Below are positions 1 through 62,592 of a stretch of DNA of 64,000 nt, one piece after another. Location of the stretch: contig OZ251518.1 of NCBI GenBank assembly GCA_965242965.1, positions 3,680,001 to 3,744,000 on the forward strand, read 5' to 3'. Position 1 is the first letter of the stretch, and each line of letters begins with the position of its first letter. Origin of the DNA: Candidatus Poribacteria bacterium. GTDB lineage: Bacteria; Poribacteria; WGA-4E; WGA-3G. Made by a program: the position numbers and the translations under genes. A model generated the notes under the pieces. The model did no database searches. It worked only from the letters and a program-made list of their open reading frames with translations, and was not told the origin of the DNA.

Positions 1-185
1 CTTACCTACAGGCTGAAGAGACGTTTTTTTCCCCGTAGCGCGGGGGCCCTCGCCCTACGATGAAGGGGGGGCTTTCTGCCGCCGCGACCCCGGTAGGCGC
101 GCCGTCCTATTGCATCGAGACCAGGAGGTCTCTCCTACGGGGATTTATGAAACAAGTCAAATTATTTTCGCCAACATTTTTTCGC

Positions 186-8122: not shown

Positions 8123-8271
8123 CTGCTTCGGAGTTGCTAAAGGGTATACTTCACGTATGTCGTGAAGGGGGGGGGTCTTTTGTGATATTCGGTAACATTC
8201 ATTGTTTCTCCTTTATCTATATTTTGGCTATTGGGTAGGTGGTTTCTCCTACCGTAGCGGCGTTGATAGAT

Positions 8272-8300
8272 ATAATATCATAAATACGTAAAAATGTCAA
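8272..8300 (-). promoter_or_regulatory. Putative sigma70 promoter of the giant surface-protein gene
   Basis: Minus-strand TTGACA (8300-8295)-17nt-TATTAT (8277-8272). Confidence 0.5.
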
Positions 8301-20913: not shown

Positions 20914-21273
20914 ATTTTCGTTTAACGCTGTTCTAATAAATGGCGAGCTCAGGCGAGCTCGCGCTATAAAGGAAAATTACGTTCAAGGATAGGCGTTTTT
21001 TTCACCGTAGCGCGGGGGCCTGTCCCCCGCGATCGTCCGAGTCCGCGAAACGCGCATGCGAGCGGGTTTCCCCGCGATCGTTGCATGGCGAGGGACAGGC
21101 CCTCGCCCTACGGTGGAGGAGCGGCGTTTTTTTACCGTAGCGCGGGGGCCTGTCCCCCGCGATCGTCCGAGTCCGCGAAACGCGCATGCGAGCGGGTTTC
21201 CCCGCGATCGTTGCATGGCGAGGGACAGGCCCTCGCCCTACGGTGTCGGGCCGCGCCCTACGTCCACGCGTGG

Positions 21274-24003: not shown

Positions 24004-24151
24004 TTTTTCGTAGTGTAGCCAAGCGTTCGGCAGTATTTCGGACGAACGCCGGTGCCTCCTTCGTTAAGTTTGGCATTGAAGGGCTCTAACGAACTGTGCT
24101 GCTCAGAGACTTCCAATGCCGTGCGATGAAAGTTGCGTGGGGATGCGCGGT

Positions 24152-24364
24152 TTAATTCAGCGCGCTAATAATCGATGCGACCGCGCCTGCCAGTGCTCCT
24201 ACGCCGAGCAGTGCCGCGAGCCCGCCGAAAATGTAGTTGAGCCGTTTTTCAACGGCGGACAGACGTTCCTCAATCTTGTCAACGCGCGCGTTGAGATTAC
24301 CGACATCTGTCTTGAGTTCGTCCAATTTCTGTAGTGCTCGTTTTTGGAATTCTTCGTTCGTCAT
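24152..24364 (-). CDS. Small coiled-coil protein with C-terminal TM helix (tandem copy 1)
   Basis: AAGGAGG SD before MTNEEFQK; heptads followed by IFGGLAALLGVGALAGAVASII. Confidence 0.65.
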   Translation of the reverse strand: MTNEEFQKRALQKLDELKTDVGNLNARVDKIEERLSAVEKRLNYIFGGLAALLGVGALAGAVASIISALN

Positions 24365-24412
24365 TGCCGAGGCCTCCTTTGCCATGAAAGTTGCGTGGTG
24401 CCGATGCGCGGG

Positions 24413-24604
24413 TTAATTCAGCGCGCTAATAATCGATGCGACTGCGCCTGCCAGTGCCCCTACGCCGAGCAGTGCGGCGAGCCCGCCGAAAATGTAGTTG
24501 AGCCGCTTTTCAACGGAGGACAGACGTTCCTCAATCTTGTCAACGCACGTGTTGAGTTCGTCCAATTTCTGTAGCACCTGTTTTTGGAATTCTTCGTTCG
24601 TCAT
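24413..24604 (-). CDS. Small coiled-coil protein with C-terminal TM helix (tandem copy 2)
   Basis: Near-identical to copy 1 but one heptad shorter; AAGGAGG SD. Confidence 0.65.
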   Translation of the reverse strand: MTNEEFQKQVLQKLDELNTCVDKIEERLSSVEKRLNYIFGGLAALLGVGALAGAVASIISALN

Positions 24605-25000
24605 TTGTTTCGTATCCTCCTTAAGTGTTGATTTCAGTGTTTGCAAGGCGCGCTGCAAATGGACTCCTCTCTGTAGTTTGTGATCGCCTGATCACAAACA
24701 GGTAAGGAGCAGGTGCTCCTTACCTACAGGGCCCGGCGAGCGAGCGATGGCGGGGCCTGTCCCTCGCCCTACGATGACATGCCGTTTTTTCCCGTAGCGC
24801 GGGGGCCTGTCCCCCGCGATTGTTGGATTGCGCGAGGCATGGCGAGGGACAGGCCCTCGCCCTACGATGAAGGGGGGGTTCTGCCGCCGCGGCCCCGGGA
24901 GGCGCGCCGCTCTATTGCATCGAGACCAGGAGAGCTCTCCTACACAGATTTATGAAACCCCCTGCAAACCAATATATCTATTAAAACATATTATGCAAGG

Positions 25001-25470
25001 TTGACATACTCCCTACACGCTAAAGACGGCTGGCACATGTGCCAGACCTCGTGGGGATTCAATGGTGTCGGTATCCCGTTGCTTTGTGTGGAATTCTGCG
25101 ATGTGTGCGACCGACCGCACGCGTGAGATGCATGGTTACCCGCGTCTGACACTCACTCTCACACTAGACTGATGCCCCGCCTAGATGATGGGTGGTAGAT
25201 AACCGAACAATGCAGCATAACCCGACTTTCGCCCGGTCATCTACCGTCGGTGTTTTACAGGGTCTCACCTGCAACCCGCCAACGCCTCTTTCCACAGAGA
25301 CAGATAGGCACCGCGACTTGGATTGCCGCGGGTGGAAACGCCTATCCAGCAGGTTACAGATAGTATACCACATTTCTTTTTGCAATGCAAGTCTTTTTTT
25401 TCATTCTATACCGTTAGCGATGTCTACATCCCGCAGTCTGAAGACTAGGGATTTGACATCGAAGATGTGG
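25001..25470 (-). mobile_element. Non-autonomous IS200/IS605-family-like element (no transposase or TnpB ORF)
   Basis: Minus-strand 3' end GAATCCCCAC...TTTAGCGTGTAGGGAGTATGTCAA resembles IS605 right ends; subterminal hairpin ATCCC(TA)GTCTTCAGACTGCGGGAT at the other end, next to TTAA. Confidence 0.6.
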
Positions 25471-25520
25471 TTAATGCAAGGAAATTTTTATGCATCGCGG
25501 TATTGTGGCGATAAAAAAAC

Positions 25521-25549
25521 TTGACACGTTAAATTTTTTGCGGTATACT
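25521..25549 (+). promoter_or_regulatory. Putative sigma70 promoter of the TA operon
   Basis: TTGACA-17nt-TATACT. Confidence 0.6.
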
Positions 25550-25651
25550 GAATGGATAAACGGGACAGGCCCCGCGCTACGGTTATTTTGTCGTTCGGGT
25601 TTGCCTGATGCCGGATGGAAACAAGAGAAAAAAGATAACGGAGGACAAACC

Positions 25652-25906
25652 ATGCCAACGGTTGCACTGACAACCCAACAGATTATCGGATGCATCCAGC
25701 AGATGTCACCCGAAGAACGATTCAAGGCACTGCGGGTGCTTGCTAGAAGCACACCCAAAGCACGCGAATTGCAAATGAAACACTCTGAACCTAGCATCCG
25801 TCAGGAGTGCGCGCAGCGCGGACTGGATTGGGACGCGATGGACGATGAAGAGCGGCTCGATTTTATTAACGACATCATCCATGAGGACCGCGCATGCCCC
25901 CCATAG
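25652..25906 (+). CDS. Putative antitoxin
   Basis: 84 aa from ATG 25652 (GGAGG SD); overlaps the PIN toxin gene. Confidence 0.6.
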   Translation: MPTVALTTQQIIGCIQQMSPEERFKALRVLARSTPKARELQMKHSEPSIRQECAQRGLDWDAMDDEERLDFINDIIHEDRACPP

Positions 25907-26298
25907 TCGTCTACGATACCAACGTGCTCTTCTCTTGGACACGCTGGCGGGGCACGCCTTACCGATGTGTTGAACTCGCGCGGCACGGCATCGTCGTGGG
26001 ACTGATTTGTGATGAACTCCTGGATGAGCTCGTCGGCGTGCTCGCCCGCAGGAAATACCCCATCACAGAAATTCTCAGCAAACAAGAAGATCTTGTCACT
26101 TTCCTCAAGTTCGTTGAGATTCCTCGTCAGCTCCATGGAGTCTGTGCCGATCCCGATGACGACATGGTGATTGAATGCGCTGTCGTCGGTGGGGCAACCC
26201 ACCTCATCACCGGTGACACAAAGCACCTGTTACCTCTTCAACGTTATCAGGGGGTACTCATCGTGTCGCCCGCCGAGTTCATTGAGCAGTTCCCCTAA
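25894..26298 (+). CDS. PIN-domain (VapC-like) toxin
   Basis: VVYDTNVL, DPDDDMVIECAV, LITGD.KHLL. Confidence 0.85.
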   Translation: MPPIVVYDTNVLFSWTRWRGTPYRCVELARHGIVVGLICDELLDELVGVLARRKYPITEILSKQEDLVTFLKFVEIPRQLHGVCADPDDDMVIECAVVGGATHLITGDTKHLLPLQRYQGVLIVSPAEFIEQFP

Positions 26299-26671
26299 CC
26301 AGTCCCGCGTTTTTTATCGGGAAGGCGAACGGGTTTCCCTATAGAGGGATGCGCGTCACAGAAAGATCGCGGGGGACAGGCCCCCGCGCTACGGTGATAG
26401 GTGGCGTTTTCAGTTCGCGGGGGACAGGCCCCCGCGCTCCGGTGATGGATGGCGGCTCCAATTCCCGCGCGACGTTAGCCGCGATGCAAAATTTGTCACA
26501 AATTTTTAACTGTTTCTCAAAACAATCGTAACATTTAAACGGTAAAGTCCATTACGAACGAATTTGGAGAACGCAAATGCCGCGCTATTGCAGCGCGCAG
26601 GATGACACAACACTTCAACACGGAGGAACTAGTTCGGTGGAAAACCGATTCCTCCACTACGGAGAAGAAAG

Positions 26672-28117
26672 ATGAGAGACAAATTATCGCGGCGGCAGTT
26701 TTTACGCACCAGCGCGCTCGCCAGTGCATCCATCGCTGTCAGCCTCGGTTTTATAGGATGTAACCGCGCCTTACTCGACAACATCCCCGGTTTCAAACCT
26801 GAGCTGCCCTATCAATTCACGCCCAGCGCGAACCGACTCCTCGACCTGCCGGAAGGCTTCACCGCCAACGCTGTCTCACGAACCGGCGAGATGATGGACG
26901 ATGGACTCTGGGTTCCGGGTAAACACGACGGCATGGCCGCCTTCCCCGGCCCCAACGGGAAAACCATCCTCATCCGCAATCACGAATTGAACGCAACCGA
27001 CAAGACGCTCGGGGCATTTGGATGGAATAATGAGAAGATTGCGCGCGCGGAGAGTGACAAATTCTACGATACCGGTTCTGGAGAGACACCCGGACTCGGA
27101 GGCACGACGACGCTTGTCTATGACACCCGCACAGCGGAATTGGATAAGCATTTCCTGAGTTTAGTCGGCACAATCCGCAATTGTGCCGGCGGACTGACTC
27201 CCTGGCAGACATGGATTACCTGCGAGGAAACCGTCCAAAAGGCAGAGAAAACTTACGAACAGGACCACGGTTACAACTTTGAAGTGCCTGTCTCTGCTAC
27301 CATCGGACTTGCAACGCCTATCCCACTCAAGGCGATGGGACGGTTCAACCACGAGGCTATCGCCGTGGACTCGCGCACCGGCATTGTCTACCAGACCGAG
27401 GATAGAAACGATGGACTCATCTATCGGTTTATTCCTGAACAGCAAGGCGAGCTCGCTAAAGGCGGCCGCCTGCAGGCACTCAAAATCCGCGATGTCAAAG
27501 GCGCGGATACCCGAAATTGGAAAAGCGGCACGCAACAGTTTTTCCCATGGACATACAAACCTTTCCCGGTAGGCGAAGTTCTGGATGTCGCATGGGTGGA
27601 TATTGAGAACGTGGAGTCGCCGAAGGATGATCTTCGCAGACAAGGCATTGAGGGAAAAGACGCTGCCAAATTCGCACGCGGCGAAGGAGTATGGTTCAGC
27701 GGCACCGATTTCTATATCGCCTGCACGAACGGCGGCATCAAGCGAAAAGGGCAAATCTGGCGATACACACCCAGCCCTTACGAAGGCACAACCGACGAAG
27801 AAAAACAGCCTGGCACGCTGCAACTCTTCATTGAACCGAACGATAGCAATCTCCTCGAAAACGCCGATAACCTGACCGTGACACCGTGGGGAGATCTGAT
27901 TCTCTGTGAGGACGGACCGAGGGAGCAATTTTTGGTAGGCGTAACGCCGGAGGGGCATCTCTATCGATTCGCGCGTAACGCCGGCAATACCTCCGAATTA
28001 GCAGGCGCGACGTTCTCACCCGATGGCACGACGTTGTTCATAAATATCCAGAATCAAGGAATTACGCTTGCGATCACGGGCCCATGGCATGAGATTCGCC
28101 AGCGGCCGTTGGGGTGA
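26672..28117 (+). CDS. PhoX/DUF839-family alkaline phosphatase with Tat signal
   Basis: SRRQFL Tat motif; HDGMAAF, RNHE, NCAGGLTPW..WITCEE, MGRFNHEA, NADNLTV..CED, SELAGATFSPDG. Confidence 0.88.
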   Translation: MRDKLSRRQFLRTSALASASIAVSLGFIGCNRALLDNIPGFKPELPYQFTPSANRLLDLPEGFTANAVSRTGEMMDDGLWVPGKHDGMAAFPGPNGKTILIRNHELNATDKTLGAFGWNNEKIARAESDKFYDTGSGETPGLGGTTTLVYDTRTAELDKHFLSLVGTIRNCAGGLTPWQTWITCEETVQKAEKTYEQDHGYNFEVPVSATIGLATPIPLKAMGRFNHEAIAVDSRTGIVYQTEDRNDGLIYRFIPEQQGELAKGGRLQALKIRDVKGADTRNWKSGTQQFFPWTYKPFPVGEVLDVAWVDIENVESPKDDLRRQGIEGKDAAKFARGEGVWFSGTDFYIACTNGGIKRKGQIWRYTPSPYEGTTDEEKQPGTLQLFIEPNDSNLLENADNLTVTPWGDLILCEDGPREQFLVGVTPEGHLYRFARNAGNTSELAGATFSPDGTTLFINIQNQGITLAITGPWHEIRQRPLG

Positions 28118-28137
28118 TGTAGATGTCCTGTGCTTTC

Positions 28138-29055
28138 CCCGTAGCGCGGGGGCCTGTCCCCCGCGATCACCATCATTACGAGGTGCGTCTAGGTCCTTTA
28201 GGACCTAAATGTCTATAGCAACCCGTGTCGTGCCGTTTTCAAGGTCCTTTAGGTCCTTAATAAAAACCATGCGCCGCAAAACACATTAAGGACCTAAAGG
28301 ACCTTAACTCTCTTCGCGTCCTCAAGTGCTATAGACATTAAGGACCTAAAGGACCTTAAGAGCCGTTTTTTTTCTAGTGCGGACGCTGGCGAGGGACAGG
28401 CCCTCGCCCTACGATGAAGGGAGACGGCCTCGACAACCGTAGCGCGGGGGCCTGTCCCCCGCGATCGTTCCTTGCAAGAACCGTTTTTTCCACCGTAGCG
28501 CGGGGGCCTGTCCCCCGCGATCGTTGGGGTACGCGGACGATTCGCCACCCCATCTGTAGTTCGGGAGCGCCCGCTCCCGAAACGGGTCAAGAGCAGGTGC
28601 TCTTGACCTACAGAGAAGAGGAGGTCTGGTGCCTGAACGATGGCGAGGGACAGGCCCCCGCCCTACGGTAGCGCGTGCGTTTTTTGTTGGTGACCGCGGG
28701 GATGCGTTTTTTTTCACCGTAGCGCGGGGGCCTGTCCCCCGCGATCGTTGGGATACGCGGACGATTCGCTCCCCCATCTGTAGTTCGGGAGCGCCCGCTC
28801 CCGCACGGGTCAAGAGCAGGCGCTCTTGCCCTACAGAGAAGAGGGAGGAGGTCTGGCGATCGAACGATGGCGAGGGACAGGCCCTCGCCCTACGGTAACC
28901 CGTGCGTTTTTTGTTGGTGACCGCGGGGATGCGTTTTTTCCCCGTAGCGCGGGGGCCTGTCCCCCGCGATCGTCAAATTACGCGTGCCTGAACGATGGCT
29001 GGGGAAACCCGCTCGAATGCGCGTATGGCATCCGAGGGCCCAAGCCCTACGATAA
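28138..29055. repeat. REP cluster with long AGGTCCT palindrome (28189-28360) and duplicated REP doublet units
   Basis: Repeated CGTAGCGCGGGGGCCTGTCCCCCGCGATC and GTAGTTCGGGAGCGCCCGCTCCCG modules. Confidence 0.85.
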
Positions 29056-29106
29056 CACGAACCGTTTTTTTTTTCATTAAATGCAAAACAATTGGGAGAA
29101 AAACAC

Positions 29107-29331
29107 ATGCCAATTCAGTGGAGAAACCACATCACCAGCACGCCGGACATCTTACGCGGAAAACCGCGCCTCAAAGGCACCCGCATTCCCGTGAGCCTCA
29201 TCCTCGGATACTTAGCCGCCGGCGCAACATCGGCAGACATTCTCGCGGATTTTCCAGACCTCGAGGCACATCAGATTCACGCCTGTCTCGATTATGCACG
29301 CGAATTAGCCGAATTTGAGGTAGCCACTTAA
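29107..29331 (+). CDS. DUF433 antitoxin-like protein
   Basis: HITSTPDILRGKPRLKGTRIPV..IL..LAAG, DFPDL...I.ACL.YA. Confidence 0.88.
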   Translation: MPIQWRNHITSTPDILRGKPRLKGTRIPVSLILGYLAAGATSADILADFPDLEAHQIHACLDYARELAEFEVAT

Positions 29332-29523
29332 TGCGCTTGCAATTCCTGGCAGATCACTGTGTGCCAACCCTCGTGGTTGAAAGCCTTCAAGCCGCCGGCC
29401 ACGAAGTGACACGACTCAGAGATTGGCTCCCCGGAATCACCGGATGAACATGTTATCGCAAAAGCGCAAGAATTGGCGGCGATCCTCCTCACGCTCAACG
29501 GCGACTTCGCGCACCATCTGTAG
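29331..29523 (+). pseudogene. DUF5615 PIN-like toxin remnant, frameshifted and truncated by a REP array
   Basis: MRLQFLADHCVP..GHEV..LRDWLP stops early; PDEHVIAKAQELAAILLTLNGDF continues in another frame, then runs into a REP. Confidence 0.7.
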
Positions 29524-30660
29524 TTCGGGAGTGCCCGCTCCCGAACGGGTCAAGAGCAGGCGCTCTTGACCTACAGAAGGAGACACGTCGTTTTCACCGT
29601 AGCGCGGGGGCCTGTCCCCCGCGATCGTTGCATGGCGAGGGACAGGCCCTCGCCCTACGGTGGAGGGGAGGCGGCCTTGACAACCGTAGCGCGGGGGCCT
29701 GTCCCCCGCGATCGTTGGGGTACGCGGACGATTCGCCACCCCATCTGTAGTTCGGGAGCGCCTGCTCCCGAACGGGTCAGGATCAGGCGATCTTGACCTA
29801 CAGAGAAGAGGGGGTCTGGTGCCTGAACGATGGCGAGGGACAGGCCCTCGCCCTACGGTATCGCGTGCGTTTTTTGTTCGACAACGCGGGAGACGTTTTT
29901 TTCACCGTAGCGCGTGGACCTGTCCCCCGCGATCGTTGGGATACGCGGACGATTCGCCACCCATCTGTAGTTCGGGAGTGCCCGCTCCCGCACGGGTCAA
30001 GAGCAGGCGCTCTTGCCCTACAGAGAAAAGGGAGGAGGTCTGGTGCCTGAACGCTGGCGAGGGACAGGCCTATAAACGGGGCTGCTGGGGTCTCCATTAG
30101 GGGATGCTGGTGCCTGAACGCTGGCGAGGGACAGGCCCTCGCCCTACGGTAGCGCGTGCGTTTTTTGTTCGACAACGCGGGAGACGTTTTTTTCACCGTA
30201 GCGCGGGGGCCTGTCCCCCGCGATCGTTCGATCGCGCGGACGATTCGCCCTCCCCCTTCTGTAGTTTGTGATCGCCTGATCACAAACGGGTCAAGAGCAG
30301 GTGCTCTTGACCTACAGAGGGACGGGTCTGGTGCCTGAACGCTGGCGAGGGACAGGCCCTCGCCCTACGGTAAACAGCACGCTTTTTTCACCGTAGCGCG
30401 GGGCCTGTCCCCCGCGAGCATTGATTACCCCAATCATCTGTAGGGCAAGATTAGGCGATTTTGAATTATTGATTCTATCGCTGCAATGCGAGGGACAGGC
30501 CCTCGCGCTACGAGCACCGGGGACGATTTCCTACGAAGTATTATACCAAATTTGGAAAATGAATTTGACAAATTTGGTGAAAAATGGTAGTATTGTTAGA
30601 AATTAGGATGGAGACTATCAATACAACGCGAGGGACAGGCCCTCGCGCTACGGGGCCCGA
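29518..30660. repeat. Large REP cluster
   Basis: Multiple tandem and inverted GTAG palindromes with repeated spacers. Confidence 0.85.
30565..30593 (+). promoter_or_regulatory. Putative sigma70 promoter of the LRR surface-protein gene
   Basis: TTGACA-17nt-TAGTAT. Confidence 0.45.
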
Positions 30661-30974
30661 GGACGATGTCCTACGCCGAAAACGGGCACCGAAGACGATT
30701 TCTGTTGGATAACCCACTCGTGAAAACGAGATAGGAGATACGCCATGAAGATCCGAATTGCTATTAACACCGCTATGAAACACGCCGCGCGCGTGCCGTT
30801 TGCTGCTTTGCAGACTAACTGCGAGGCATTCAGTCGATTTACCCCCCCTTCACTCGACACCCGTTAACTCCAGGCCTCACAAGGCAACATCGGCGTTCTT
30901 TCGGAGATTCCGGCCGTGAACGCCGGACTGCCGCCAACATTCGCTTACCCGGTAACGTCGGCGTTCTTCTGGCG

Positions 30975-33900
30975 TTGCTGGTGATTGCATTCTCTTGTTG
31001 CTGGATCCCTGTCGCCTCCGCACAGGATGAAGTCCCGTTCCATGAACGAGCTTTCAGAGATACTGTTTTCAGAGATGTTGTGGGGTCTGCACTTAGCGAA
31101 AATCGCCCTGGTGGGCGAATAAAAGATCTCTCCGATCCCATCACGCAAGCACATATGGCAGACTCACGCTTCACTGAGCTGAGTCAGTTTACCCGTCCCT
31201 TTCCGACTCGGCCCCTAATAACGGACTTAACGGGAATTGAGTACGCGACAAGTTTGACAACCTTAGATATCAGCAACCAGGAAGTTAGCGACCTCTCGCC
31301 GATCGCAGGTCTGACGGGGTTGACAGATTTAACTCTCAATGGTAATGAGATTAGCGACCTCACGCCACTCCGAAACCTGACAAATTTGACGGTCTTAGCG
31401 GTCAGCCGGAATGATATTCGCGACCTCTCGCCGATCGGAACACTGACAAGTTTAACCACGTTATACATCAATAACAATCCAAATCTTGGTGCGAACCTTG
31501 CGGGACTCAGAAGTCTGACGAATCTGATGGAATTAACGATGTATTCTATCAACGCACGTGACATTCAGCCGCTTGAAGGGCTGACGAATTTGAGCAGACT
31601 AATTGCCTATGACAACCAAATCCGAGATCTCTCACCGCTCAGAGACTTGGAAAATTTGACGATTTTGAACATTGCGGCTAATGGAATTCGTGATATTTCG
31701 CCGCTCACGGAGTTGACGCTCAGCACTTTAAACTTCAGACAGGTCTCATTTTGGGGGGACTCCTATTATAGCAAGTTACTGAGTTACCCATCACTCTATA
31801 CGTATCTCCCCATCATTCTAGCCAACAATCCGACGCTATCTGTGGGAAACTTCACTTTCGGTCCCCCTAACTTTCGCGTTCCGACAACCCTAGAGAGCAT
31901 CTCTGGCGATGGGGCAACCGTCGTATCGGACGAGGCACTGCCGGAACCGCTCATCGTGAAGGTGCTGGATGAAAACGAAGAACGGTTTGCTGGCGTGCCG
32001 GTGACGTTTGCAGTGACAGAAGGAGATGGCACCGTGGAACCCGCAGAAACCGCGGCGTTGGACCCCACATATAACCTGCGCGACGAGGAGGAAGGAGAGG
32101 CGCAGACTACCTTCACAGCGGGCGAATCCCTCGGGCAGCAGACCGTGGTGGCGACGGTGACACACGAAGACACAACGCTCCAAGCCACCTTCACCATCAA
32201 CGTGCAACCCGGTGCCATCGCGGCACCGACAATAGCAACAGTTGACCCTCCTCTACCCACCACGCTGCCCGTAAGGTGGGCCGCGCCTTCGTATGCCGTG
32301 CAAAGTTACGAAATACGCTATCGAGTCCAGGATAGCGAGGCGTGGACAGTTGCAGTCATCGAGGGAACAGAGACGCTCTTCACGCTCCCCGATTTAATCC
32401 CGGGCACCACTTATGAGTGGCAGGTGCGGGCGGAGACGGAGGTGGGCTTCGCCCCCTGGTCTCCATCAGGTTTCGCCACCACGGGGATCGCGGCACCGAC
32501 AATAGCAACAGTTGACCCTCCCCTACCCACCACGCTGCCCGTAAGGTGGGCCGCGCCTTCGTATGCCGTGCAAAGTTACGAAATACGCTATCGAGTCCAG
32601 GATAGCGAGGTGTGGACAGTTGAAGTCCTTGAGGGAACAGAAACGCTCTTCACGCTCCCCGATTTAATCCCGGGCACCACTTATGAATGGCAGGTGCGGG
32701 CGGAGACAGAGGTGGGCTTCACCCCCTGGTCTCCATCAGGTTTCGCCACCACGGGGCATGTATCTTTACAGCGTGAGTTGGCACCTGCGCCTGTCGCCTT
32801 GGCTCGGCTCGTCCTCAACGAAATTCGGAATGCGCCGGCGGACCGCGATGATTGGGTGGAGTTAAAAAACATCAGCGGTTCAGAGCTCTCGCTTGCAGGT
32901 TGGGAGCTCAGCATCGTTGCGCCGGCAGGCGATGCGGCGAATCAGGATGTGGATATCGTCACGTTCCCCGACTACACATTGCCGGCGGGGGAAGTGTTGC
33001 TCATCACGAACACCGACCCGGGCGAGACAGCCTTGGCGAGTGGGGTGAACATTGCGACAGGTGCGCGCAAAAAAGGCGCGACGCACCGCTATCTCGTCGC
33101 ATCGGGATTGAAATTGCCGGCGACGCGCTACCTGTTGCTGCTGCGCAGTGCTGTTGATAAAAATGGCACCTCGGCGGCATTGGAGGATGTGGCAGGGAAC
33201 TACTTCCGCGAGGCAGGAGATATCCTCTTTGAGGGGGGCACGCAAGTGTGGCCCCTGCAAGATACCGAGCATCCGGGCGATGCGCCGCCGTTGACAGAGG
33301 GAGAGGCATGGACCCGGGTTTCCACGGAGAAACGCGGTTATGTCGCCTCTGCTTGGAGTGCGAGTGGGTATCACGATGGGCTCGGGTATCGTCGCAATGC
33401 GGAAGCGGAGACGAGTCTCGGCACACCCGGGTATGACGCACCGGCTATCACCGCGGCCACGCCGACAGCGCAGCTGAGTGTGAGTGAATTGATGCTCACG
33501 ACAGGCGGCAGCCGTGGCGGACCGCAGTGGATAGAGCTCTACAATCCGTCCTTGACAGCACCGGTGAAGTTGGAAGGCTGGCGGTTGGAAGTGGAATATC
33601 TGGATGCGGAGAATGCGCGGCGGAATCGGTATGAGGGGATTTCTTTCTATCCGTTCACCGTGCTCCCGATTCAGACTATCCTCCTCACGACATGGCACGG
33701 TGAGAATTCGGGGCATTTTCCGGAGAGTCGGGTTTATCACCTTGGATTTCGTCATGGGCGGGCTTTTAACCAACGTGAGCGGCGAAGCGACATGTTGAAT
33801 CCGCTGGGTTTCTCGGTGAAGCTCTTGGATGCGGAGGGTGCTCTCGTTGACATTATCGGGAATTTAGATGGCGTGGCTCGGACGAAAGACGAACCGGCGT

Positions 33901-34448
33901 GGCAAGTGCCGCCTTTTGAGACAACTGATGGCGTGCGCGTCTCGCTGTTGCGCAAGTATGAAGATGGCGCGCCGCTGCCGGGGATGGAGGCGGCGAGCTG
34001 GAGAAGCGCGGCACAGGTGAAACTCGTCGGGACAACCTATTTCGGGCGCGAGACAGACCTCGGGACGCCTGGTTATCGGCGAGGTGGTGCGTTGCCGGTT
34101 GTCCTGTCGCATTTCCACGCGCTTCGGACGGAGGCGGGAGTTGTTATCCGTTGGACTACCGAGTCAGAGGTAGACATGGCTGGGTTCAACATCTTGCGTA
34201 GCGCGAGTCGTGCGGGGCCGTTTACGATTATCAATCCGGCACTGATACCGGGTGCTGGCACATCGGGTGAGAAGCATACTTACACGTTTACGGATACTGC
34301 ATCGAAGCCGGGGGTTGTTTCGTATTATCGGCTGGAGGAGGTATCTTTAGGTGGTGTGCGTTTACCTTTAGCGACGGCGCGTTTGAAGGGGCATATCGGT
34401 GCGCGCGGCAAACTCACGACGCGTTGGGGTGAATTGAAGGCGCGGTAG
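30975..34448 (+). CDS. Secreted internalin-like LRR + Big_1-like Ig + 2x Fn3 + 2x lamin-tail domain protein with C-terminal LTTRWGELK; probable real start 30745 via frameshift
   Basis: L..L.L..N.I.DLSPL repeats, GVPVTFAVT, duplicated Fn3 (32218-32484 vs 32487-32754), LVLNEI/VSELM..WIELYN, LPVVLSHF. Confidence 0.87.
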   Translation: MLVIAFSCCWIPVASAQDEVPFHERAFRDTVFRDVVGSALSENRPGGRIKDLSDPITQAHMADSRFTELSQFTRPFPTRPLITDLTGIEYATSLTTLDISNQEVSDLSPIAGLTGLTDLTLNGNEISDLTPLRNLTNLTVLAVSRNDIRDLSPIGTLTSLTTLYINNNPNLGANLAGLRSLTNLMELTMYSINARDIQPLEGLTNLSRLIAYDNQIRDLSPLRDLENLTILNIAANGIRDISPLTELTLSTLNFRQVSFWGDSYYSKLLSYPSLYTYLPIILANNPTLSVGNFTFGPPNFRVPTTLESISGDGATVVSDEALPEPLIVKVLDENEERFAGVPVTFAVTEGDGTVEPAETAALDPTYNLRDEEEGEAQTTFTAGESLGQQTVVATVTHEDTTLQATFTINVQPGAIAAPTIATVDPPLPTTLPVRWAAPSYAVQSYEIRYRVQDSEAWTVAVIEGTETLFTLPDLIPGTTYEWQVRAETEVGFAPWSPSGFATTGIAAPTIATVDPPLPTTLPVRWAAPSYAVQSYEIRYRVQDSEVWTVEVLEGTETLFTLPDLIPGTTYEWQVRAETEVGFTPWSPSGFATTGHVSLQRELAPAPVALARLVLNEIRNAPADRDDWVELKNISGSELSLAGWELSIVAPAGDAANQDVDIVTFPDYTLPAGEVLLITNTDPGETALASGVNIATGARKKGATHRYLVASGLKLPATRYLLLLRSAVDKNGTSAALEDVAGNYFREAGDILFEGGTQVWPLQDTEHPGDAPPLTEGEAWTRVSTEKRGYVASAWSASGYHDGLGYRRNAEAETSLGTPGYDAPAITAATPTAQLSVSELMLTTGGSRGGPQWIELYNPSLTAPVKLEGWRLEVEYLDAENARRNRYEGISFYPFTVLPIQTILLTTWHGENSGHFPESRVYHLGFRHGRAFNQRERRSDMLNPLGFSVKLLDAEGALVDIIGNLDGVARTKDEPAWQVPPFETTDGVRVSLLRKYEDGAPLPGMEAASWRSAAQVKLVGTTYFGRETDLGTPGYRRGGALPVVLSHFHALRTEAGVVIRWTTESEVDMAGFNILRSASRAGPFTIINPALIPGAGTSGEKHTYTFTDTASKPGVVSYYRLEEVSLGGVRLPLATARLKGHIGARGKLTTRWGELKAR

Positions 34449-35120
34449 GAGAGACCTCCTGGTCTCGCTGCGCGCGTGCGTTTTCCCGGTCATGCGATAA
34501 CGCCGCGCCTTACCGTAGGGCTTGGGCCCTCGGATGCCACCCGCGCCTGCGAGCGGGTTTCCCTCGCCATGCGTTGATTGCGGGGCCCATCTCTGTAGTT
34601 CGGGAGCGCCTGCTCCCGATCGGGTCAAGAGCAGGTGCTCTTGCCCTACAGATGGTTGGGGTAAGCAGCGATCGCGGGGGACAGGCCCCCGCGCTACGGT
34701 AAAAAGGCATGTTCGCGGGGGACAGGCCCCCGCGCTACGGTGATGCGATAACGCCGTTTTTTTCGTAGGGCGAGGGCCTGTCCCTCGCCATGCGTCGATC
34801 GCGGGGCCGATCTCTGTAGTTCGGGAGCACCTGCTCCCGATCAGGTCAAGAGCAGGCGCTCTTGCCCTACAGATGGTTGGGGTAAGCAGCGATCGCGGGG
34901 GACAGGCCCCCGCGCTACGGTGCGGCGTTAACGCCGTTGTTTTGTAGGGCGAGGGCCTGTCCCTCGCCATGCAACGCGCATCCCAACGATCGCGGGGGAC
35001 AGGCCCCCGCGCTACGGTACGGTGGTAAGCCGTTTTTTTTTCGTAGGGCGAGGGCCTGTCCCTCGCCATGCCTCGCGCGCCCCAACGCTCGCGGGGGACA
35101 GGCCCCCGCGCTACGGTGCG
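34445..35120. repeat. REP cluster
   Basis: Starts at the TAG stop of the upstream gene; repeated CGCGGGGGACAGGCCCCCGCGCTAC. Confidence 0.85.
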
Positions 35121-35148
35121 TTGATAACGCCGTTGTTTTTTCGTAGAC

Positions 35149-35700
35149 TCACCCTTCATCTTGCTGAAAGGGACCAAAGTCTCCAGCATCCTCCCCAGTT
35201 GGCACCTTGAAGACACTCGGGTCTTTGCCGAGGGAGATCAGATGCGCAATTGTCTCCTTCAATTCCTCATCTGTTTCCACCAGCCTTGAAATATAGGCAG
35301 CCTCTTCCCTATTCTTTCTCGCCAGCGTGAGTTGGATTTCATTGAGGCGCAGGAGATCTGGCAGGAGGACCGCGTTAGCCCCTGCAACTCGCTCAGCGAT
35401 GGTTACGTATTCTTCGAGGAAGGTTTCGTCGCCTTGCGCGAAGAGATGATACGCTTTTACGAGTTCTTCGCGGGCTGCTGCCGGCTCGTCCTCGCGGTGT
35501 TCAAGATATCTCTCTACCCGCTTGACAGCCTCTTTCTCCCGCATTTCAATCGGGACAGCAGCGTCGTTCTGAAGACGTGCCTCCTTTTCCTCTTCCGTGA
35601 GGAGTAAGCGAGAAGCGTCTTCCGTATTCAGTTCTTGTCCATCATCCGCACATCCGACAAGGATGCAGAGGATGGCAAGCATCGCACATAAGTAACGCAT
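35149..35700 (-). CDS. Hypothetical lipoprotein
   Basis: Lipobox ILVGC; AAGGAG SD. Confidence 0.65.
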   Translation of the reverse strand: MRYLCAMLAILCILVGCADDGQELNTEDASRLLLTEEEKEARLQNDAAVPIEMREKEAVKRVERYLEHREDEPAAAREELVKAYHLFAQGDETFLEEYVTIAERVAGANAVLLPDLLRLNEIQLTLARKNREEAAYISRLVETDEELKETIAHLISLGKDPSVFKVPTGEDAGDFGPFQQDEG

Positions 35701-35733
35701 GGGTAACTCCTTTCTACAAAAGAGAGATTCGCT

Positions 35734-36480
35734 CTACATCCCACCAAAACGGTAGGACTGCTGAAAGGGAATCTCAATGCCTTCATCAGCAGCAAGTTGC
35801 CGTAACTCTTTGAGATACGCAACCTGCTCAACCACCTCCTGAACATTTTCAGGAGGCACACTCGGTGGTATCAGCCTCAAAAAGGCTTCAGCGTTTGCAA
35901 TTGCATCGTCAATAGTGCCGGTGCCTTCATTACTGCGTTGAACCGTTTCAACAAGGATATCGACATCGGCAGAATCGCCGTATTGTTCCCGGAACGCATC
36001 ATCTAAGCGTTGATATGCGTAGGCGGGATGGGTGTCAAGATAGGCATTGTAATCGTCAAAGCCTGCCTTGACAATTTCTACGTCATAAGAGAGTCCATCG
36101 GAAGCCTCGGCAATGTCGCCTTCTTCTGGCAAGGTGTCACCATCGTTTTCTTCCACGAGTGGCTCAAAAAGTGCCAGTGGGGCATCGCCAGGGGATTCAG
36201 GAAAGTCTTCTACCGAATCAACCTTCGTATCCGCGATGCTATCCGATGTTGCATCCGATGGATGCGTTACAACAGGGATGGGTTCGGAGTCAGCGAGTTC
36301 CTCCGTGACACCTTTGGCGTTCGGGGTGTCTTGCGATGCCGTATCCATCGTTGGGACTTCCGGCAGCGATTCCTGAAACCGCTTTAAGTCCCATTGAGAA
36401 TAGAGAAAGATGCCGGCAGAGAGCAGGAGGACAACAACGGTGGCCCATCCGAGTGCCTGCAGGGAATTTCGGGATTTCAT
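35734..36480 (-). CDS. Hypothetical acidic protein with N-terminal membrane anchor
   Basis: Start MKSRNS at 36480 (GGAGG SD); single TM helix then D/E-rich region. Confidence 0.6.
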   Translation of the reverse strand: MKSRNSLQALGWATVVVLLLSAGIFLYSQWDLKRFQESLPEVPTMDTASQDTPNAKGVTEELADSEPIPVVTHPSDATSDSIADTKVDSVEDFPESPGDAPLALFEPLVEENDGDTLPEEGDIAEASDGLSYDVEIVKAGFDDYNAYLDTHPAYAYQRLDDAFREQYGDSADVDILVETVQRSNEGTGTIDDAIANAEAFLRLIPPSVPPENVQEVVEQVAYLKELRQLAADEGIEIPFQQSYRFGGM

Positions 36481-37299
36481 TTTTTGCCTCCAATGGTATA
36501 TAACCGAGTTTACCGTAGTGCGAGGGCCTGTCCCTCGCCATCGTTCATGCACGTGCACTCCAACGCTCGCGGGGGACAGGCCCCCGCGCTACGGTGAGGG
36601 GATAACGCCGTTGTTTCCCGTAGGGCGAGGGCCTGTCCCTCGCCATTGTTCATGCACGTGCACTCCAACGTTCGCGGGGGCCTGTCCCCTGCGCTACGGT
36701 GAAAAATGGGGACTTGCCGGTGGGCGGCCCCTTCCGATCTCAATGCCTTCCGGGTAGGAGAGACATCCCGGTCTCGATGCATCCCCGTAGCGCGGGGGCC
36801 TGTCCCCCGCGATCTCTGTCGTCAAGAGTGGCGTTTTAGGTCCTACGGACCTAAGAGAACAAGAGACGTTTTTTTCGCAGCGCGAGGCATGGCGAGGGAA
36901 ACCCGCTCGGATGCGCGTGTGGCATCCGAGGGCCCAAGCCCTACGATGAAGGGAGGCGGCCTTGACAACCGTAGCGCGGGGGCCTGTCCCCCGTGATCGT
37001 TGGATTCCACGAGCGATGGCGAGGGACAGGCCCTCGCCCTACGATGAAGGGCGGCGGCCTTGACAACCGTAGCGCGGGGGCCTGTCCCCCGCGAGCGTTG
37101 GATTCCGCGGACGCTGGAAACCGAATCGTTCGCGGTATCACGAAACCATTTTGACAACAACGAGTTATGAAACAACCTCAACTCTACTTCCAATGTCGAC
37201 CAAAAAGCTGGAAGTGTCCACTCTTTTTTTACGACACGCGTATTTTCGTATGTTTTGCGTCGTGCGCCATGCCAAAGACAGGCGCATCGACGCGCTTTG

Positions 37300-38127
37300 T
37301 CAATGAAAACCTGGATCATCCTCCTGTTCCCTCATTTCCCTCGCGAGCTGCTTCAGTTTCTTCATTGCGGCAGACGAGGTCTCCGAGACCCAGGATTTGC
37401 CGTAGCCAACGACTTCTGCAATCTCGCGAACGCTCATTGGAGGGGTGCCACCGATGCCCCACTGAAGCCGAATTACCTCGGCTTCCTCGGGTTTAAGACG
37501 CGCGAGGAAGAAGTCTAATTCCTGCCGCGCTTCAACAGCCGCGATGTCGGCATCGTGGGTGCCGACGCACTCGGCGAGCGTTATGTCTTCTTCGTCAGCA
37601 TCTGTCCCCACCGAGGCATCAAGACTCTCTGTGCCCTGCGCCGAGCAGCGACGAATCTCTTGCACCTCTTTGAGAGAACAGTCCAACACGGATGCCATCA
37701 TTTCATCGGAGACAGAACCGCCGAGGCTATCAAGCATGCGGCGAAACCGGTTCACCTGCTGCCGCAGCGGTTTCGGCACGTGGACGAGCGTCCGGTGCTT
37801 GTCGATGTAATCCATGATTCTGCCACGGATACGGTAACTGGCATAAGTGGCGAGTCGGCCACGGGAGGGATTGAACTTATCAACGGCTTGGATGAGTGCC
37901 ACCTCTCCTTCCGAGAAGAGGTCATCGAGCTCTAGCCCACAGCCTGAAAATTGGAGGGCGATGGACTTGACAAGCCGCAGATTACAAAGGATGAGCTCCT
38001 CGCGCGCGGCTTCGGAACCGTCGCGCGCGAGGGAACGCTCTTCCTCGGCAGACAACAAGGGATAACTCGAAATGAGCCGCTCAATAGCAGGGCTCAGGTG
38101 TGGGATATCAAAATGTTCGGACATCAT
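37300..38127 (-). CDS. Sigma-70 family RNA polymerase sigma factor (divergent RpoD/RpoS-like)
   Basis: LLSAEEE, NLRLVKSIA, LIQAVDKF, SLDA, region-4 HTH (REIAEVVG); AAGGAG SD. Confidence 0.85.
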   Translation of the reverse strand: MMSEHFDIPHLSPAIERLISSYPLLSAEEERSLARDGSEAAREELILCNLRLVKSIALQFSGCGLELDDLFSEGEVALIQAVDKFNPSRGRLATYASYRIRGRIMDYIDKHRTLVHVPKPLRQQVNRFRRMLDSLGGSVSDEMMASVLDCSLKEVQEIRRCSAQGTESLDASVGTDADEEDITLAECVGTHDADIAAVEARQELDFFLARLKPEEAEVIRLQWGIGGTPPMSVREIAEVVGYGKSWVSETSSAAMKKLKQLAREMREQEDDPGFH

Positions 38128-38345
38128 GATCGCGCTCCTTTTGGGAATTAGCAAAGGCGCGCATCAGAGATGCACCGCCTCTACCTGCACTTCATGTTGA
38201 CATTCACCTGTTGAATCATTACGTTTGACTTCCTAAATTCGGTTTGGCATGCGTCGTTTCCGACGCGCGCCGGTTAATAGGTTGAGCGGCATCGCCAAGT
38301 ATGGATGCCATTTCAGGATTAAAGTGGACAATGTTCCTAACTAAA

Positions 38346-38646
38346 TGAGGGTGTTTCATAACTCGCTCAACGTTGCGGTGAAACCCGCTCGGATGCGCGT
38401 GTGGCATCCGAGGGCCCCCGCGCGACGATGAAAAAAACGCCTCCTCTTCACGTAGGGCGAGGGCCTGTCCCTCGCCATCGTTCATGCACCAGACCCCCCC
38501 CTCCCCTCTGTAGTTCAGGATCGCCTGATCCTGACCCGCTCGGGAGCGGGTGCTCCCGAACTACAGATGTGGGCCCGATGCCTGCCGGTATTCGCCCGCC
38601 CTCCAAGGCGGGATAAATACCGAAACGGAATTATGAAACACCCTCA
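38346..38646. mobile_element. MITE-like unit with 16-bp perfect terminal inverted repeats carrying REP cargo
   Basis: TGAGGGTGTTTCATAA (38346-38361) ... TTATGAAACACCCTCA (38631-38646). Confidence 0.55.
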
Positions 38647-39097
38647 GTTTACCGTAGGGCGAGGGCCTGTCCCTCGCCATGCCTCGATCGCGGGGGACAG
38701 GCCCCCGCGCTACGGGTGGAGAAAAGCCTCCTTTCATCGTAGGGCGAGGGCCTGTCCCTCGCCATCGTTTTGGTGTCAGACCGCCTCACCCCTGTAGGTC
38801 AGGATCGCCTGATCCTGACCTGTTTGTGATCAGGCGATCACAAACTACAGAGAGGTGTGAACGAAAAGAAACGGTGCGCGTTCCTTTAGGTCCTAAAACG
38901 CCACCTCTTGATGATGGCCAACGCGGGGGACAGGCCCCCGCGCTACGGTAAAGAGGTGCAATGCTCGCGGGGGACAGGCCCCCGCGCTACGGTGAGGGGA
39001 TAACGCCGTGGTTTCCCGTAGGGCTTGGGCCCTCGCATGCCACACGCGCATGCGAGCGGGTTTCCCTCGCCGTGCCTCGCGCAATCTAACGCTAGCA

Positions 39098-39970
39098 TTA
39101 CCGCCGTTTGAGGTCTGCCCACGTCGTGGCGAGTTTGCGATGTGGATTGACATGCAAGTAGTTACCGGTATAGGTGAGGTGATGTCCGTTTCCAGAGGCA
39201 TCCCGCCACTTTGAACCCGGGTCTCCATCCCAATCAAAATGCCAAAGTGCCATCGTGTGTTCATCGGTTTCAAACCGTCCCTTCGGAATCTCAATAGTTT
39301 TCTCCCAGACCTCGTTCCATTTTTTGTCTGCTATCCCATCTGCAGGATATCGGACAACATTTGAGATGCGGACTTCGTCAATCAGTCCGCCGGTGAAGTC
39401 CACCCACACCGGTTTTCCGAGGAAGGGCCCGGGGGTAACCCCGAGTAAGGGCTTGCGGCCGCCGCCAATGCGGAGGGGGCCATCGGTATTATCAAATCTC
39501 AGCGGGCTACCGCGCGTCCCTCGGAGACGGTTGTTGACGCAGTGCTGCCGATACCGTTTTGCAAACGTGACAGCAATGTAGTGCCACTCCTTCAGCGGCA
39601 ACGTTGCCAGCAAACCGGGGAGGCCTCCTGCGTGGAATCCCTCTCGGAAGGTAAAGTTAAAACTCGGAGAGCCGGGTGGAAACATATCCCATCTGTAACT
39701 CTCGTCTTTGTAAAGAAGTGACCAGACTTCAAGGGGTTGTGCGATGGCATCGACACGTTCCTTCAAGGGCCGCTCCAGATACACCCACATCTCAATGGTG
39801 AATCCGTCCGTTTTCAAGGTAACGTCAAAGTCGTCGTGGTCTGGGACAGTGACGTAGTTGCCTTGTTCGTAGATGCGGAGATACTCGCCCCCGGCGGGGG
39901 ACGGTGGTGCAGTGTCCCCTGTGCGAAATAGGCACAGAGAGAGCAGTGCGGTGAAAACAAGCATTCGCAT
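39098..39970 (-). CDS. Secreted LamG-like jellyroll protein with C-terminal KLATTWADLK motif
   Basis: FTIEMWV, WHYIAVTF, G.IDEVRIS, ALWHFD, DASGNGH; signal peptide from ATG 39970. Confidence 0.8.
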   Translation of the reverse strand: MRMLVFTALLSLCLFRTGDTAPPSPAGGEYLRIYEQGNYVTVPDHDDFDVTLKTDGFTIEMWVYLERPLKERVDAIAQPLEVWSLLYKDESYRWDMFPPGSPSFNFTFREGFHAGGLPGLLATLPLKEWHYIAVTFAKRYRQHCVNNRLRGTRGSPLRFDNTDGPLRIGGGRKPLLGVTPGPFLGKPVWVDFTGGLIDEVRISNVVRYPADGIADKKWNEVWEKTIEIPKGRFETDEHTMALWHFDWDGDPGSKWRDASGNGHHLTYTGNYLHVNPHRKLATTWADLKRR

Positions 39971-40601
39971 GGTTTGGCTCCTTCTCTTAGTTCCTAACGG
40001 ACCTAAAACGATGCGTCCGAAAAAACGGCGTGTTTTACCGTAGGGCGAGGGCCTGTCCCTCGCCGTGCCACGATCGCGGGGGACAGGCCCCCGCGCTACG
40101 GTGAAAAAAACGCCTCTCCTTCCCGTAGGGCGAGGGACAGGCCCTCGCCATGCTGTCTGCGCTGCAGCATTTCTGTAGTTCGGGAGCACCTGCTCCCGAT
40201 CGGGTCAAGATCAGGCGATCTTGACCTACAGGTGCTTGGGGTAAGCAGCGATTGCGGGGGACAGGCCCCCGCGCTACGGTGGGTCGGTAACGGCGTTGTT
40301 TCCCGTAGGGCGAGGGCCTGTCCCTCGCCATGTCACGATCACGGGGGACAGGCCCCCGCGCTACAGGAACATCGAGACCAGGAGGTCTCTCCTACGGGGA
40401 AACATCGCTCGCTATAAAAATGAACGTTTTTAAAAACGTAGACGTTATTTTTCGGCAAAAGGTACCACAAAAAATGCAGTTTTTTTCAAGAAAATCGATA
40501 TTCTTTCCATTTTTCTCCCAGATTGTCAAAAAATCTATCCATTATTCCGACTTTTATGCTATAATAACATATCCAAATCCGAAAAAAGGAACCGAAAATA
40601 A

Positions 40602-53299: not shown

Positions 53300-53950
53300 C
53301 AACGTAGGGCGAGTGCCTGTCCCTCGCCCCACGCCAAACGTCTTAACTGAGGGTGTTTCATAACTCCCTTATGGATGCCTCTTTAGGTGCTTTAGCACCT
53401 ACATGTCTATAGAAAAACGTGTCGGTTCATGTCAAGGTCCTTTAGGTCCTTAATAAAAAAACGCGCCGCATGTCAAAACACATTAAGGACCTAAAGGACC
53501 TTAGTGTTCTTCGCGAGGGCGCGTGCTATAGACATTCAGGTCCTACAGACCTGAAAGACCTTGTTTTTCGGAGCGCGAGGGCCTGTCCCCCGCGAGCGTT
53601 GGATTGCACGGACGCTGGCGAGGGACAGGCCCTCGCCCTACGGTGAAGGCGGGCGTTTTTTTCACCGTAGCGCGGGGGCCTGTCCCCCGCGATCTCCATC
53701 GTCACGATGTGTGTTTCCTCCCACTGTAGTTTGTGATCGCCTGATCACAAACGGGTCAGGAGCAGGCGAGCCTGACCTACAGGGCCTAGCGCGCGAACGC
53801 AGGCGAGGGAAACCCGCTCGGATGCGCGTATGGCATCCGAGGGCCCTCGCCCGACGGTGAAGGGGGGCTTTCTGCTCACCCTATTGCATCGAGACCAGGA
53901 GGTCTCTCCTACCGGGGATGCATCGAGACCGGGAGGTCTCTCCTACGGGG
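53300..53950. repeat. REP cluster with long AGGTCCT palindrome (53383-53555)
   Basis: Same modules as the other clusters; TGAGGGTGTTTCATAA at 53348. Confidence 0.8.
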
Positions 53951-62079: not shown

Positions 62080-62592
62080 ATCGCTCAACGTCGCGGTGAC
62101 AGTCTCGATGCGAGCGGTGTCCCCGTAGGAGAGCCCTCCCGGTCTCGATGCACATTCTGTAGTTCGGGCTCGCCTGCTCCCGACCGGGTCAGATCAGGCA
62201 GCGAGGGCCTGTCCCTCGCCCTCCGTGAAGGGGCGGCATTTTTTCACCGTAGCGCGGGGGCCCTCGGATGCCACACGCGCATCCGAGCGGGTTTCCCTCG
62301 CGAACGTTCGGGGTGCCGAGACATGGCGAGGGACAGGCCCTCGCCCTACGGTGAGGGGGGGCGTTTTGTGAAGAAGATGTCCCGTTACCGTAGTGCGGGG
62401 CCCCTCGGATGCCATCCGCGCATGCGAGCGGGTTTCCCTCGCAATCGTTCGGGGTGCCGAGACATGGCGAGGGACAGGCCCTCGCCCTACGGTAATCGAG
62501 ACCAGGAGGTCTCTCCTACCAGAGCTAATCGAGACTGGGAGGTCTCTCCTACCGGGAAGACATCGAGATATGAAACACCCTCAATAAAAAAC

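Follow-up and report, generated by a model that had tools for sequence, protein, structure and literature searches.

How is a gene for a very large secreted protein translated when the only plausible start codon lies in another reading frame? The question is raised by a locus, called site 2 here, in a stretch of 64,000 nucleotides of Candidatus Poribacteria bacterium (assembly GCA_965242965.1, contig OZ251518.1, positions 3,680,001-3,744,000). This whole stretch is referred to as the window, and coordinates are window positions unless otherwise indicated. At site 2 a Shine-Dalgarno sequence and an ATG open a short leader open reading frame (ORF), which crosses a homopolymer of seven cytosines (C7) and ends soon after. 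The body of the protein is encoded in the -1 frame relative to the leader (30745 is 1, and 30975 is 0, modulo 3), and one C added to the tract fuses leader and body. Tracts of this type precede most genes of the family coding for LTD (PF00932) proteins in this genome. On balance, the poly-C run is probably a slippage-prone contingency tract, which mediates translational phase variation of a family of surface proteins.

The leader of site 2 terminates at the TAA contained in a GTTAAC motif, 16 nt past the tract. The earliest ATG, GTG or TTG codon of the body frame is TTG 30975, corresponding to residue L53, which falls inside the hydrophobic segment V47-A68. A purine-rich Shine-Dalgarno sequence is absent from the 24 bases 5' of this TTG, and the basic stretch expected before the core of a signal peptide is encoded 5' of it, in the same frame. 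Since the body frame has no ATG, GTG or TTG from 30819 until halfway through the hydrophobic core, site 2 can sensibly start only at the leader ATG. The position of the locus, the AGGAGA-ATG leader, the C7 tract, the -1 frame and the TTG without a Shine-Dalgarno sequence in the hydrophobic core had all been pointed out in an initial annotation made from the sequence, and all were confirmed. Pfam domains identified in the body frame are LRR, Invasin_D3, two fn3 and two LTD. The LTD domain scores 64.3 bits in P0001, over two stretches, against a cut-off of 34.3, and the matches at site 2 span window 32802-33056 and 33456-33860. In public proteins of 110-350 amino acids, the translated region 30819-31418 found 52 matches, all through the LRR part and with 60% as best identity; none was a near-identical in-frame allele. 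Rfam 15 gave no match in the window at gathering score, and only chance-level matches at 30400-31100 and at six cassette loci.

Site 1, on the opposite strand, has the anatomy initially assigned to it (AAGGAGA, ATG 8202, C9, TAG stop, ORF in -1). The two genes had been regarded as paralogs; they are not close paralogs, and their leaders differ. As promoter and Shine-Dalgarno-ATG lie upstream of the tract at both sites, the tracts are located within transcripts and within translated ORFs. Features of the two sites are listed in Table 1.

Table 1. Features of the two poly-C loci in the window.
Feature	Position	Strand	Basis or remark
Site 2 sigma-70-type promoter, TTGACA-17 nt-TAGTAT, TG ahead of second hexamer	30565-30593	+	10/12 matches; about 150 nt 5' of leader ATG
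Site 2 REP-like repeat copy or copies in the 5' untranslated region	30620-30700		Sequence; many short matches to related genomes, query positions 57-106
Site 2 Shine-Dalgarno AGGAGA, 6 nt ahead of ATG 30745	30733-30738	+	Sequence
Site 2 leader ORF, 40 codons + TAA (30865-30867), C-terminus ...RFTPPSLDTR-stop	30745-30867	+	Translation
Site 2 C7 homopolymer, putative frame-switch site	30842-30848	+	Leader frame ACC CCC CCT, giving heptamer C_CCC_CCU
Site 2 cassette core motif: A, C7, 14 nt, GTTAAC (30863-30868)	30841-30868	+	Motif census
Site 2 body frame, 1209 codons without stop, stop codon 34446-34448	30819-34448	+	-1 relative to leader
Site 2 signal-peptide-like segment: basic R33-R42, hydrophobic V47-A68, end VASA ahead of QDE	30915-31022	+	Translation judged by eye
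Site 1 promoter, TTGACA-17 nt-TATTAT	8272-8300	-	11/12 matches
Site 1 Shine-Dalgarno AAGGAGA	8213-8207	-	Sequence
Site 1 leader ORF, ATG 8202, 21 codons + TAG (8139-8137)	8137-8202	-	Translation
Site 1 C9 tract	8175-8167	-	Inside site 1 leader ORF
Site 1 body ORF, 2002 amino acids from TTG 8122; fn3 x4, cadherin x3, LTD	2114-8122	-	-1 frame relative to leader

The genome to which the window belongs (G000; 5.70 Mb in 2 contigs) is rich in poly-C runs, G/C runs being over-represented from length 7 up. C6, C7, C8 and C9 runs number 283, 48, 34 and 15, respectively, G runs behave alike, and G/C runs of at least 7 total 224. In the window C7 runs are not enriched (10 found, 8.8 expected). Allowing up to one mismatch, the window has 7 matches to CCCCCCCTTCAC where 0.23 would be expected, and none of 100 shuffles yields as many. 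Five of these seven matches are units of a dispersed repeat resembling repetitive extragenic palindromes (REP-like), arranged as Cn-TTCA[CT]-CGTAGGGCGAGGGCC. The repeat has the core CGTAGGGCGAGGGCC(TGT)CCCTCGC, often with a poly-C run and TTCA[CT] in front. Of the 224 G/C runs of at least 7, about 67 are part of this repeat, which is abundant also in two related genomes, G001 and G002. Window copies, all on the minus strand, are found at 60-71, 1509-1520, 24867-24878, 53857-53868 and 62225-62236. The TTCAC context which the initial annotation took as shared by sites 1 and 2 is indeed seen at both; since the REP-like repeat features the same context, Cn-TTCAC by itself does not single out the two genes.

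A different class of runs is marked by another signature. Runs of at least six C followed by GTTAA(C) about 13 nt later occur 71 times in G000, the combined length of tract and gap being 21 nt at 30 sites, 22 nt at 11 and 20 nt at 8. A stricter census (A, at least six C, 6-17 nt, GTTAA, non-REP) identified 53 sites. These are cassettes made by a strong sigma-70-type promoter, a leader ORF, A-Cn, about 13 nt and GTTAAC, with the TAA ending the leader frame. Sequences fitting TTGACN-16..18-TANNNT, present in 3.8% of random windows, were found within 450 nt upstream at 44 of the 53 sites (at 43, the distance to the tract is 152-282 nt), and within 450 nt downstream at none. A long open frame follows the tract at 37 sites. 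At 34 of these, the frame which stays open for at least 300 nt reads the motif as G_TTA_AC, which implies that, past the tract, translation enters or continues in a single defined frame.

Other functions were considered for the tract and for GTTAAC. The location of the promoters excludes that the tract is a promoter spacer or GTTAAC a -10 box. GTTAAC is not an unusual hexamer, as the genome has 1041 copies of it and hexamers of the same composition a median of 848. A small inverted repeat (TNNAC/GTTAAC) noticed by eye was dropped, its pairing being inconsistent.

Of 40 distinct LTD open frames above the Pfam cut-off in G000, 33 have a non-REP tract of at least six C at or near the 5' end (same strand, from -800 to +200 nt of the frame opening), and 30 of these 33 the TTAA motif as well. 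Tract-bearing genes are of two types. In 17 the tract resides inside an N-terminal coding leader, as in site 2. In the other 16 it is found 180-640 nt 5' of a gene endowed with its own Shine-Dalgarno-ATG and a signal peptide as judged by eye, and the G_TTA_AC frame is open for 250-540 nt past the tract. At the upstream cassettes of LTD genes and of the 14-copy family described below, this frame ends at most 20 nt from the main start in 8 of 23 sites; an ATGA overlap with the main start was found in 2 of the 23 sites scored. Body ORFs located 3' of out-of-frame tracts are unbroken over 1100-2000 codons, as expected for genes still in use.

Cassettes are not restricted to LTD genes. A family of 14 copies, GGGGAGGCTCGA-C8-GACACCCACAGGC-GTTAAG, lies 230-420 nt 5' of unrelated genes, the majority of which begin at an ATG of their own and encode an N-terminus resembling a signal peptide (G000 C1: 82364, 1430685, 1635662, 1825742, 2502515, 2612609, 2769854, 3260520, 3293501, 4160417, 4245958, 4746638, 4914445, 5267145). 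Tract spacing is identical throughout this family, in three copies by way of a base substitution at the tract edge. A family of eight copies features C7-C9 followed by TTCAAAATTTGGTCAAAACCC-GTTAAA (G000 C1: 2101457, 2540469, 2542105, 2841489, 3319143, 3590607, 3818338, 5063325); several copies, read on the opposite strand, have the run where two long open frames meet. Three genes encoding N6_N4 DNA methylases have poly-C at or near the 5' end (G000 C1:471799, C8; 473397, C9; 2324431, C9; loci L024 and L025). In two tandem methylase copies the run is 14 nt ahead of the ATG; in the third it falls in a D-P-P motif and the gene is split into two frames.

G000 and 30 relatives were searched for the pattern A-C>=7-N12-15-GTTAAC. 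In addition to 24 matches in G000, 15 were found in four related genomes, 3 and 7 in two of the same genus, 4 and 1 in two which belong to other genera of the same family. The pattern has no match in the 26 other relatives, and a reversed control pattern none in all 31 genomes. With 33 of the 40 LTD frames and this set of matches, the switch initially proposed as common to the LTD family is supported, and reaches further than had been suggested. Over 61 genomes of the family, an alignment of the leader family was matched only in G000 (13), G001 (6) and G002 (1); in public metagenome and genome contigs 75 and 95 pattern stretches, respectively, were retrieved, none of which was confirmed.

The leader is itself a coding sequence. 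In one leader family (13 members in G000, 6 in G001), differences between the two genomes amount to 0.269, 0.257 and 0.417 at the first, second and third codon position, as expected for a coding ORF, and the peptide has a conserved tail (PP-hydrophobic-hydrophobic-Y-x-R-stop). In eight LTD paralogs of about 1500 amino acids, column variability is 0.03-0.08 from the leader start to the region of signal-peptide cleavage, 0.42 in the 5' untranslated region and about 0.5 in the mature part. To judge from these alignments, the cassette is either homogenised among paralogs or strongly constrained. A 5-bp stem with a variable loop, CCTGC-N8-GCAGG, is located directly 3' of GTTAAC and is followed by GAAGGCG at G000 C1:1117209-1117700 and in seven paralogs; similar stems with changed pairs were found in other cassette families and in G001 and G002.

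Different frame states coexist among cassettes. The tract may be one C short, in which case the leader ends on reading GT_TAA; it may be in frame with the body; or it may be one C long. When the longest upstream-open frame is taken in any phase, 30 of 50 sites are one short, 9 in frame and 11 one long, the leader frame being deduced from open-frame length at sites which have no clear Shine-Dalgarno-ATG. The family ascertained by its leader includes in G000 11 one-short members and a single member in each of the other two states (n=13), in G001 (210 contigs, same genus) 4 one short and 2 in frame (n=6); states of paralogs and relatives are not independent in these counts. Two paralogs of G002 differ by one C, L007 (C8) being one short and L008 (C9) in frame. 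One-long alleles were found in G001 (L002, C11), G009 (L011, C8) and G000 (C1:1502751, C6). An intact paralog of site 2, L016:402-3911, codes for 1169 amino acids, with leader, C7 and body in a single frame; at the edge of the tract it carries an additional base, and it reads TTAA-C7 where site 2 reads TTTA-C7. Frame offset is mostly kept in orthologs and paralogs, yet in-frame and one-long alleles do occur. Frame states are therefore mixed, as phase variation predicts, yet more skewed toward one short than simple slippage predicts.

Length of the site 2 tract was compared in contigs of four public runs, X1, X3, X6 and X10, which come from four studies and were aligned to window 20001-40000. 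Runs covering the region are labelled sponge metagenome, none of those listed is an RNA run, and one of the four is possibly the source of the assembly itself. Position 30841 is covered by contigs of all four. Among the indels listed, C7 is unchanged in X6 (depth 15.5) and X10 (218.3); in X1 and X3 one contig each has two extra C (C9; depth 1644.7 of 5110.7 and 21.8 of 104.1, respectively) beside the reference C7. The comparison is one of contigs, which drop rare variants. As to the quality of the assembly, A/T runs of at least 7 in G000 are found in frame inside long ORFs in 200 instances and at frame junctions in 16, C/G runs of the same length in 29 and 15, respectively (each run counted on both strands). 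The A/T figures tell that the genome is not generally broken at homopolymers.

Two further differences were noticed in the same contigs. Two extra C follow position 29428, at the end of a C4 run (29425-29428), at full depth in contigs of X1, X6 and X10, not of X3; this resembles a difference fixed between strains, in a short run of C. A form skipping 176 nt between two REP-like copies (window 30513-30690) is present in contigs of all four runs, and would delete the promoter at 30565-30593. With flanking matches of only 22-24 nt, this form may stem from a join induced by the repeats and not from a true deletion.

The reading on balance preferred is that of a contingency tract. The C7 run, a homopolymer which is transcribed and translated as part of the coding leader at the 5' end of the gene for a large secreted LRR/fn3/LTD protein, would act as a slippage-prone frame switch. 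Slippage at replication would add or remove a C, so that the leader opened by the Shine-Dalgarno-ATG would either share the frame of the signal peptide and the body or fall outside it, and the gene would be turned on or off in a heritable yet reversible way. In the present assembly the tract is one C short, and leader translation would end at the TAA of GTTAAC. With the same cassette in front of most LTD genes, a population might express varying subsets of the family. For genes having their own start, an early stop of the leader would leave several hundred bases untranslated, which may lower expression via polarity or RNA structure. Frequent and reversible switching, and the control of protein output by the tract, would follow from this mechanism.

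The anatomy of the leader, the presence of in-frame paralogs, the mixed frame states in paralogs and relatives, the C7/C9 polymorphism of the site 2 tract, the intact bodies and the class of genes concerned all support the contingency reading, and the cassette is distributed family-wide. Three attributes of contingency loci are found here: a run of about 7 or more in a 5' reading frame, a change by one unit which, by the computed frames, toggles between full-length and truncated products, and natural length polymorphism.

Several observations weigh against slippage as the whole story. Contingency loci should exhibit both out-of-frame states with no strong preference, and there is no such even split. 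At the 36 of 53 cassette sites in which the ...T-P-P frame is the longest upstream-open frame, spacing places 29 in the one-short state, 5 in frame and 2 in the one-long state. The relatives of site 2 and site 1 in G001 (L028, C8, and L036, C9) are both one short. At 30 of 71 sites tract and gap add up to 21 nt, be the tract C7, C8 or C9, and spacing is identical in all 12 copies of the 14-copy family scored in the census. Conserved residues T(-9), A(-6) and G(0), numbered relative to GTTAA, are second codon positions of the leader frame. The five codons past the tract are also best conserved at second positions of this frame, and the leader-frame stop is conserved too. At site 2 itself neither C7 nor C9 is in frame with ATG 30745, and the indels listed for contigs of the four runs include no in-frame allele. 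The initial annotation had named in-frame tracts in independent data as a result that would contradict it; among the indels listed, independent contigs give C7 and C9. The one-short skew could reflect deletion-biased slippage, if shorter runs are more stable.

The skew, the 21-nt sum, the spacing of the 14-copy family and the conservation of the leader frame all fit a programmed -1 recoding, which is a tentative alternative. One short would then be the designed state: the ribosome would slip by -1 on C_CCC_CCN, or RNA polymerase would add a C, so that a fraction of translation reaches the body and the rest yields a short peptide. In addition to the spacing count, 16 of the 21 members of the leader-ascertained family over three genomes are one short, the state is retained in the G001 relatives of both sites, and the offset modulo 3 is maintained while the tract spans C7 to C10. 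The coding leader, its second-position conservation and a leader-frame stop at fixed distance also agree with recoding. Against it stand the in-frame and one-long alleles of the same cassettes, and the polymorphic length of the tract at site 2. Transcriptional slippage usually needs runs of at least 9, and C7 is shorter, which counts against a contribution of RNA polymerase. A slippery heptamer is present in the zero frame, C_CCC_CCU for C7 or C_CCC_CCC for C8 alleles. As far as the available text of the source goes, C_CCC_CCC ranks with the -1 heptamers of highest efficiency in E. coli, a pseudoknot located downstream makes C_CC.U and C_CC.C tetramers shift, and such motifs hardly shift at all unless a stimulator is present (PMC4066793). 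Folding of 16 loci revealed no consistent stem-loop 5-9 nt past the tract (z from -3.7 to +1.6, 100 mononucleotide shuffles each); at site 2 a strong stem begins about 40 nt downstream of the tract. A Shine-Dalgarno-like GGAGG before the tract was found only in the 14-copy family. Extending recoding to the whole family, more than 30 surface-protein genes would be expressed through -1 poly-C slippage in a translated leader, Pro-Pro stalling might tune the output, and changes in DNA length would be a second, slower layer; this is a doubtful proposition. The initial annotation had left the choice between phase variation and recoding to the distribution of frames. Frames are mixed, as the former predicts, but strongly skewed to -1, so that the choice stays between both mechanisms.

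It is improbable that the leader serves as a regulatory upstream ORF of its own, for instance coding for a Pro-Pro stalling peptide, and that the body starts by itself at TTG 30975 or GTG 30981, so that the tract would not be a switch for the body. Genes do exist which start on their own: a downstream Shine-Dalgarno and start codon are present at C1:5054530 (GTG), at C1:4608225 and 5627316 (ATG, lipoprotein-like) and in the 14-copy family, at least 13 large LTD genes have a Shine-Dalgarno-ATG 250-640 nt past the tract, and the conserved tail of the leader peptide would suit such a role. At site 2, however, the candidate starts lie only within the hydrophobic core, lack a Shine-Dalgarno sequence, and would lose the basic n-region; the G_TTA_AC frame, open at 34 of the 37 sites, implies entry into this frame at the tract, and in-frame paralogs have the leader fused to the body.

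Loss of a C by assembly error, or a fresh pseudogene devoid of any switching, is largely refuted and very improbable: a genome in 2 contigs suggests long reads, which can miscount homopolymers, and G/C runs occur at frame junctions more often than A/T runs, but assembly error at C7 is ruled out by the A/T-run census, by C7 in contigs of four runs from four studies (one being possibly the source of the assembly) and by the one-short state in G001, found at 6 of the 8 cassette loci examined, and decay is contradicted by intact body ORFs and by a motif conserved across genera.

Partial likenesses to the contingency tract proposed here are found in several known systems. In opa genes of Neisseria and outer-membrane protein genes of Helicobacter, CTCTT or CT repeats are located within the region coding for the signal peptide. 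As here, the switch is placed after the start codon and ahead of the signal-peptide core, genes form a paralogous surface family, and most copies are out of frame; those repeats differ in not being homopolymers, and are not known to be accompanied by a separate conserved leader-frame stop or GTTAAC. Vlp and vsp genes of Mycoplasma feature a homogenised 5' cassette, with a homopolymer in the promoter spacer. The nearly identical 5' region before diverged mature parts is a common trait, but the promoter of the poribacterial cassettes lies 150-280 nt upstream of the tract.

Contingency loci with homopolymeric tracts are described in Campylobacter, Neisseria, Haemophilus, Helicobacter and Bordetella, in which poly-G/C runs mark the 5' coding regions of surface-protein and methylase genes (PMC8355987, PMC5084427, PMC1891110, PMC2831843). 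As far as the excerpts of these sources extend, traits in common are a G/C run of 7-10 near the 5' end of the frame, length setting the frame, the multiplicity of loci, the involvement of surface-protein genes and, here, three DNA methylase genes, and natural length polymorphism. By the same excerpts, what distinguishes the present case is a sponge-associated, non-pathogen lineage, a conserved promoter-leader-A-Cn-13 nt-GTTAAC cassette, the one-short skew, and the placement of about half of the tracts in a long upstream ORF ending near the main gene's own start. With -1 frameshifting in dnaX and IS3-family transposases, to the extent covered by the available text (PMC4066793), the cassettes share a zero-frame slippery heptamer, a zero-frame stop soon after and a -1 frame which continues; they differ from both in having no stimulatory structure found at the usual spacing, in-frame alleles at the DNA level, and surface-protein genes as targets.

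The literature searched contains no link of sponge symbionts or LTD proteins to homopolymer phase variation. LTD surface proteins are candidate adhesins, and we know of no account of how the display of the many eukaryote-like surface proteins of sponge symbionts (LRR, fn3, cadherin, LTD) is controlled. For annotation, the consequence is that most such genes will receive wrong starts or be called pseudogenes. The excess of one-short tracts, the fixed leader-frame stop and the conserved GTTAAC go beyond simple slippage and, if due to recoding, would denote an unusually large recoding regulon. If a shared switch truly operates at 33 of 40 LTD genes, each cell would display a different subset of these proteins, heritable yet reversible, a strategy so far described mainly for mucosal pathogens.

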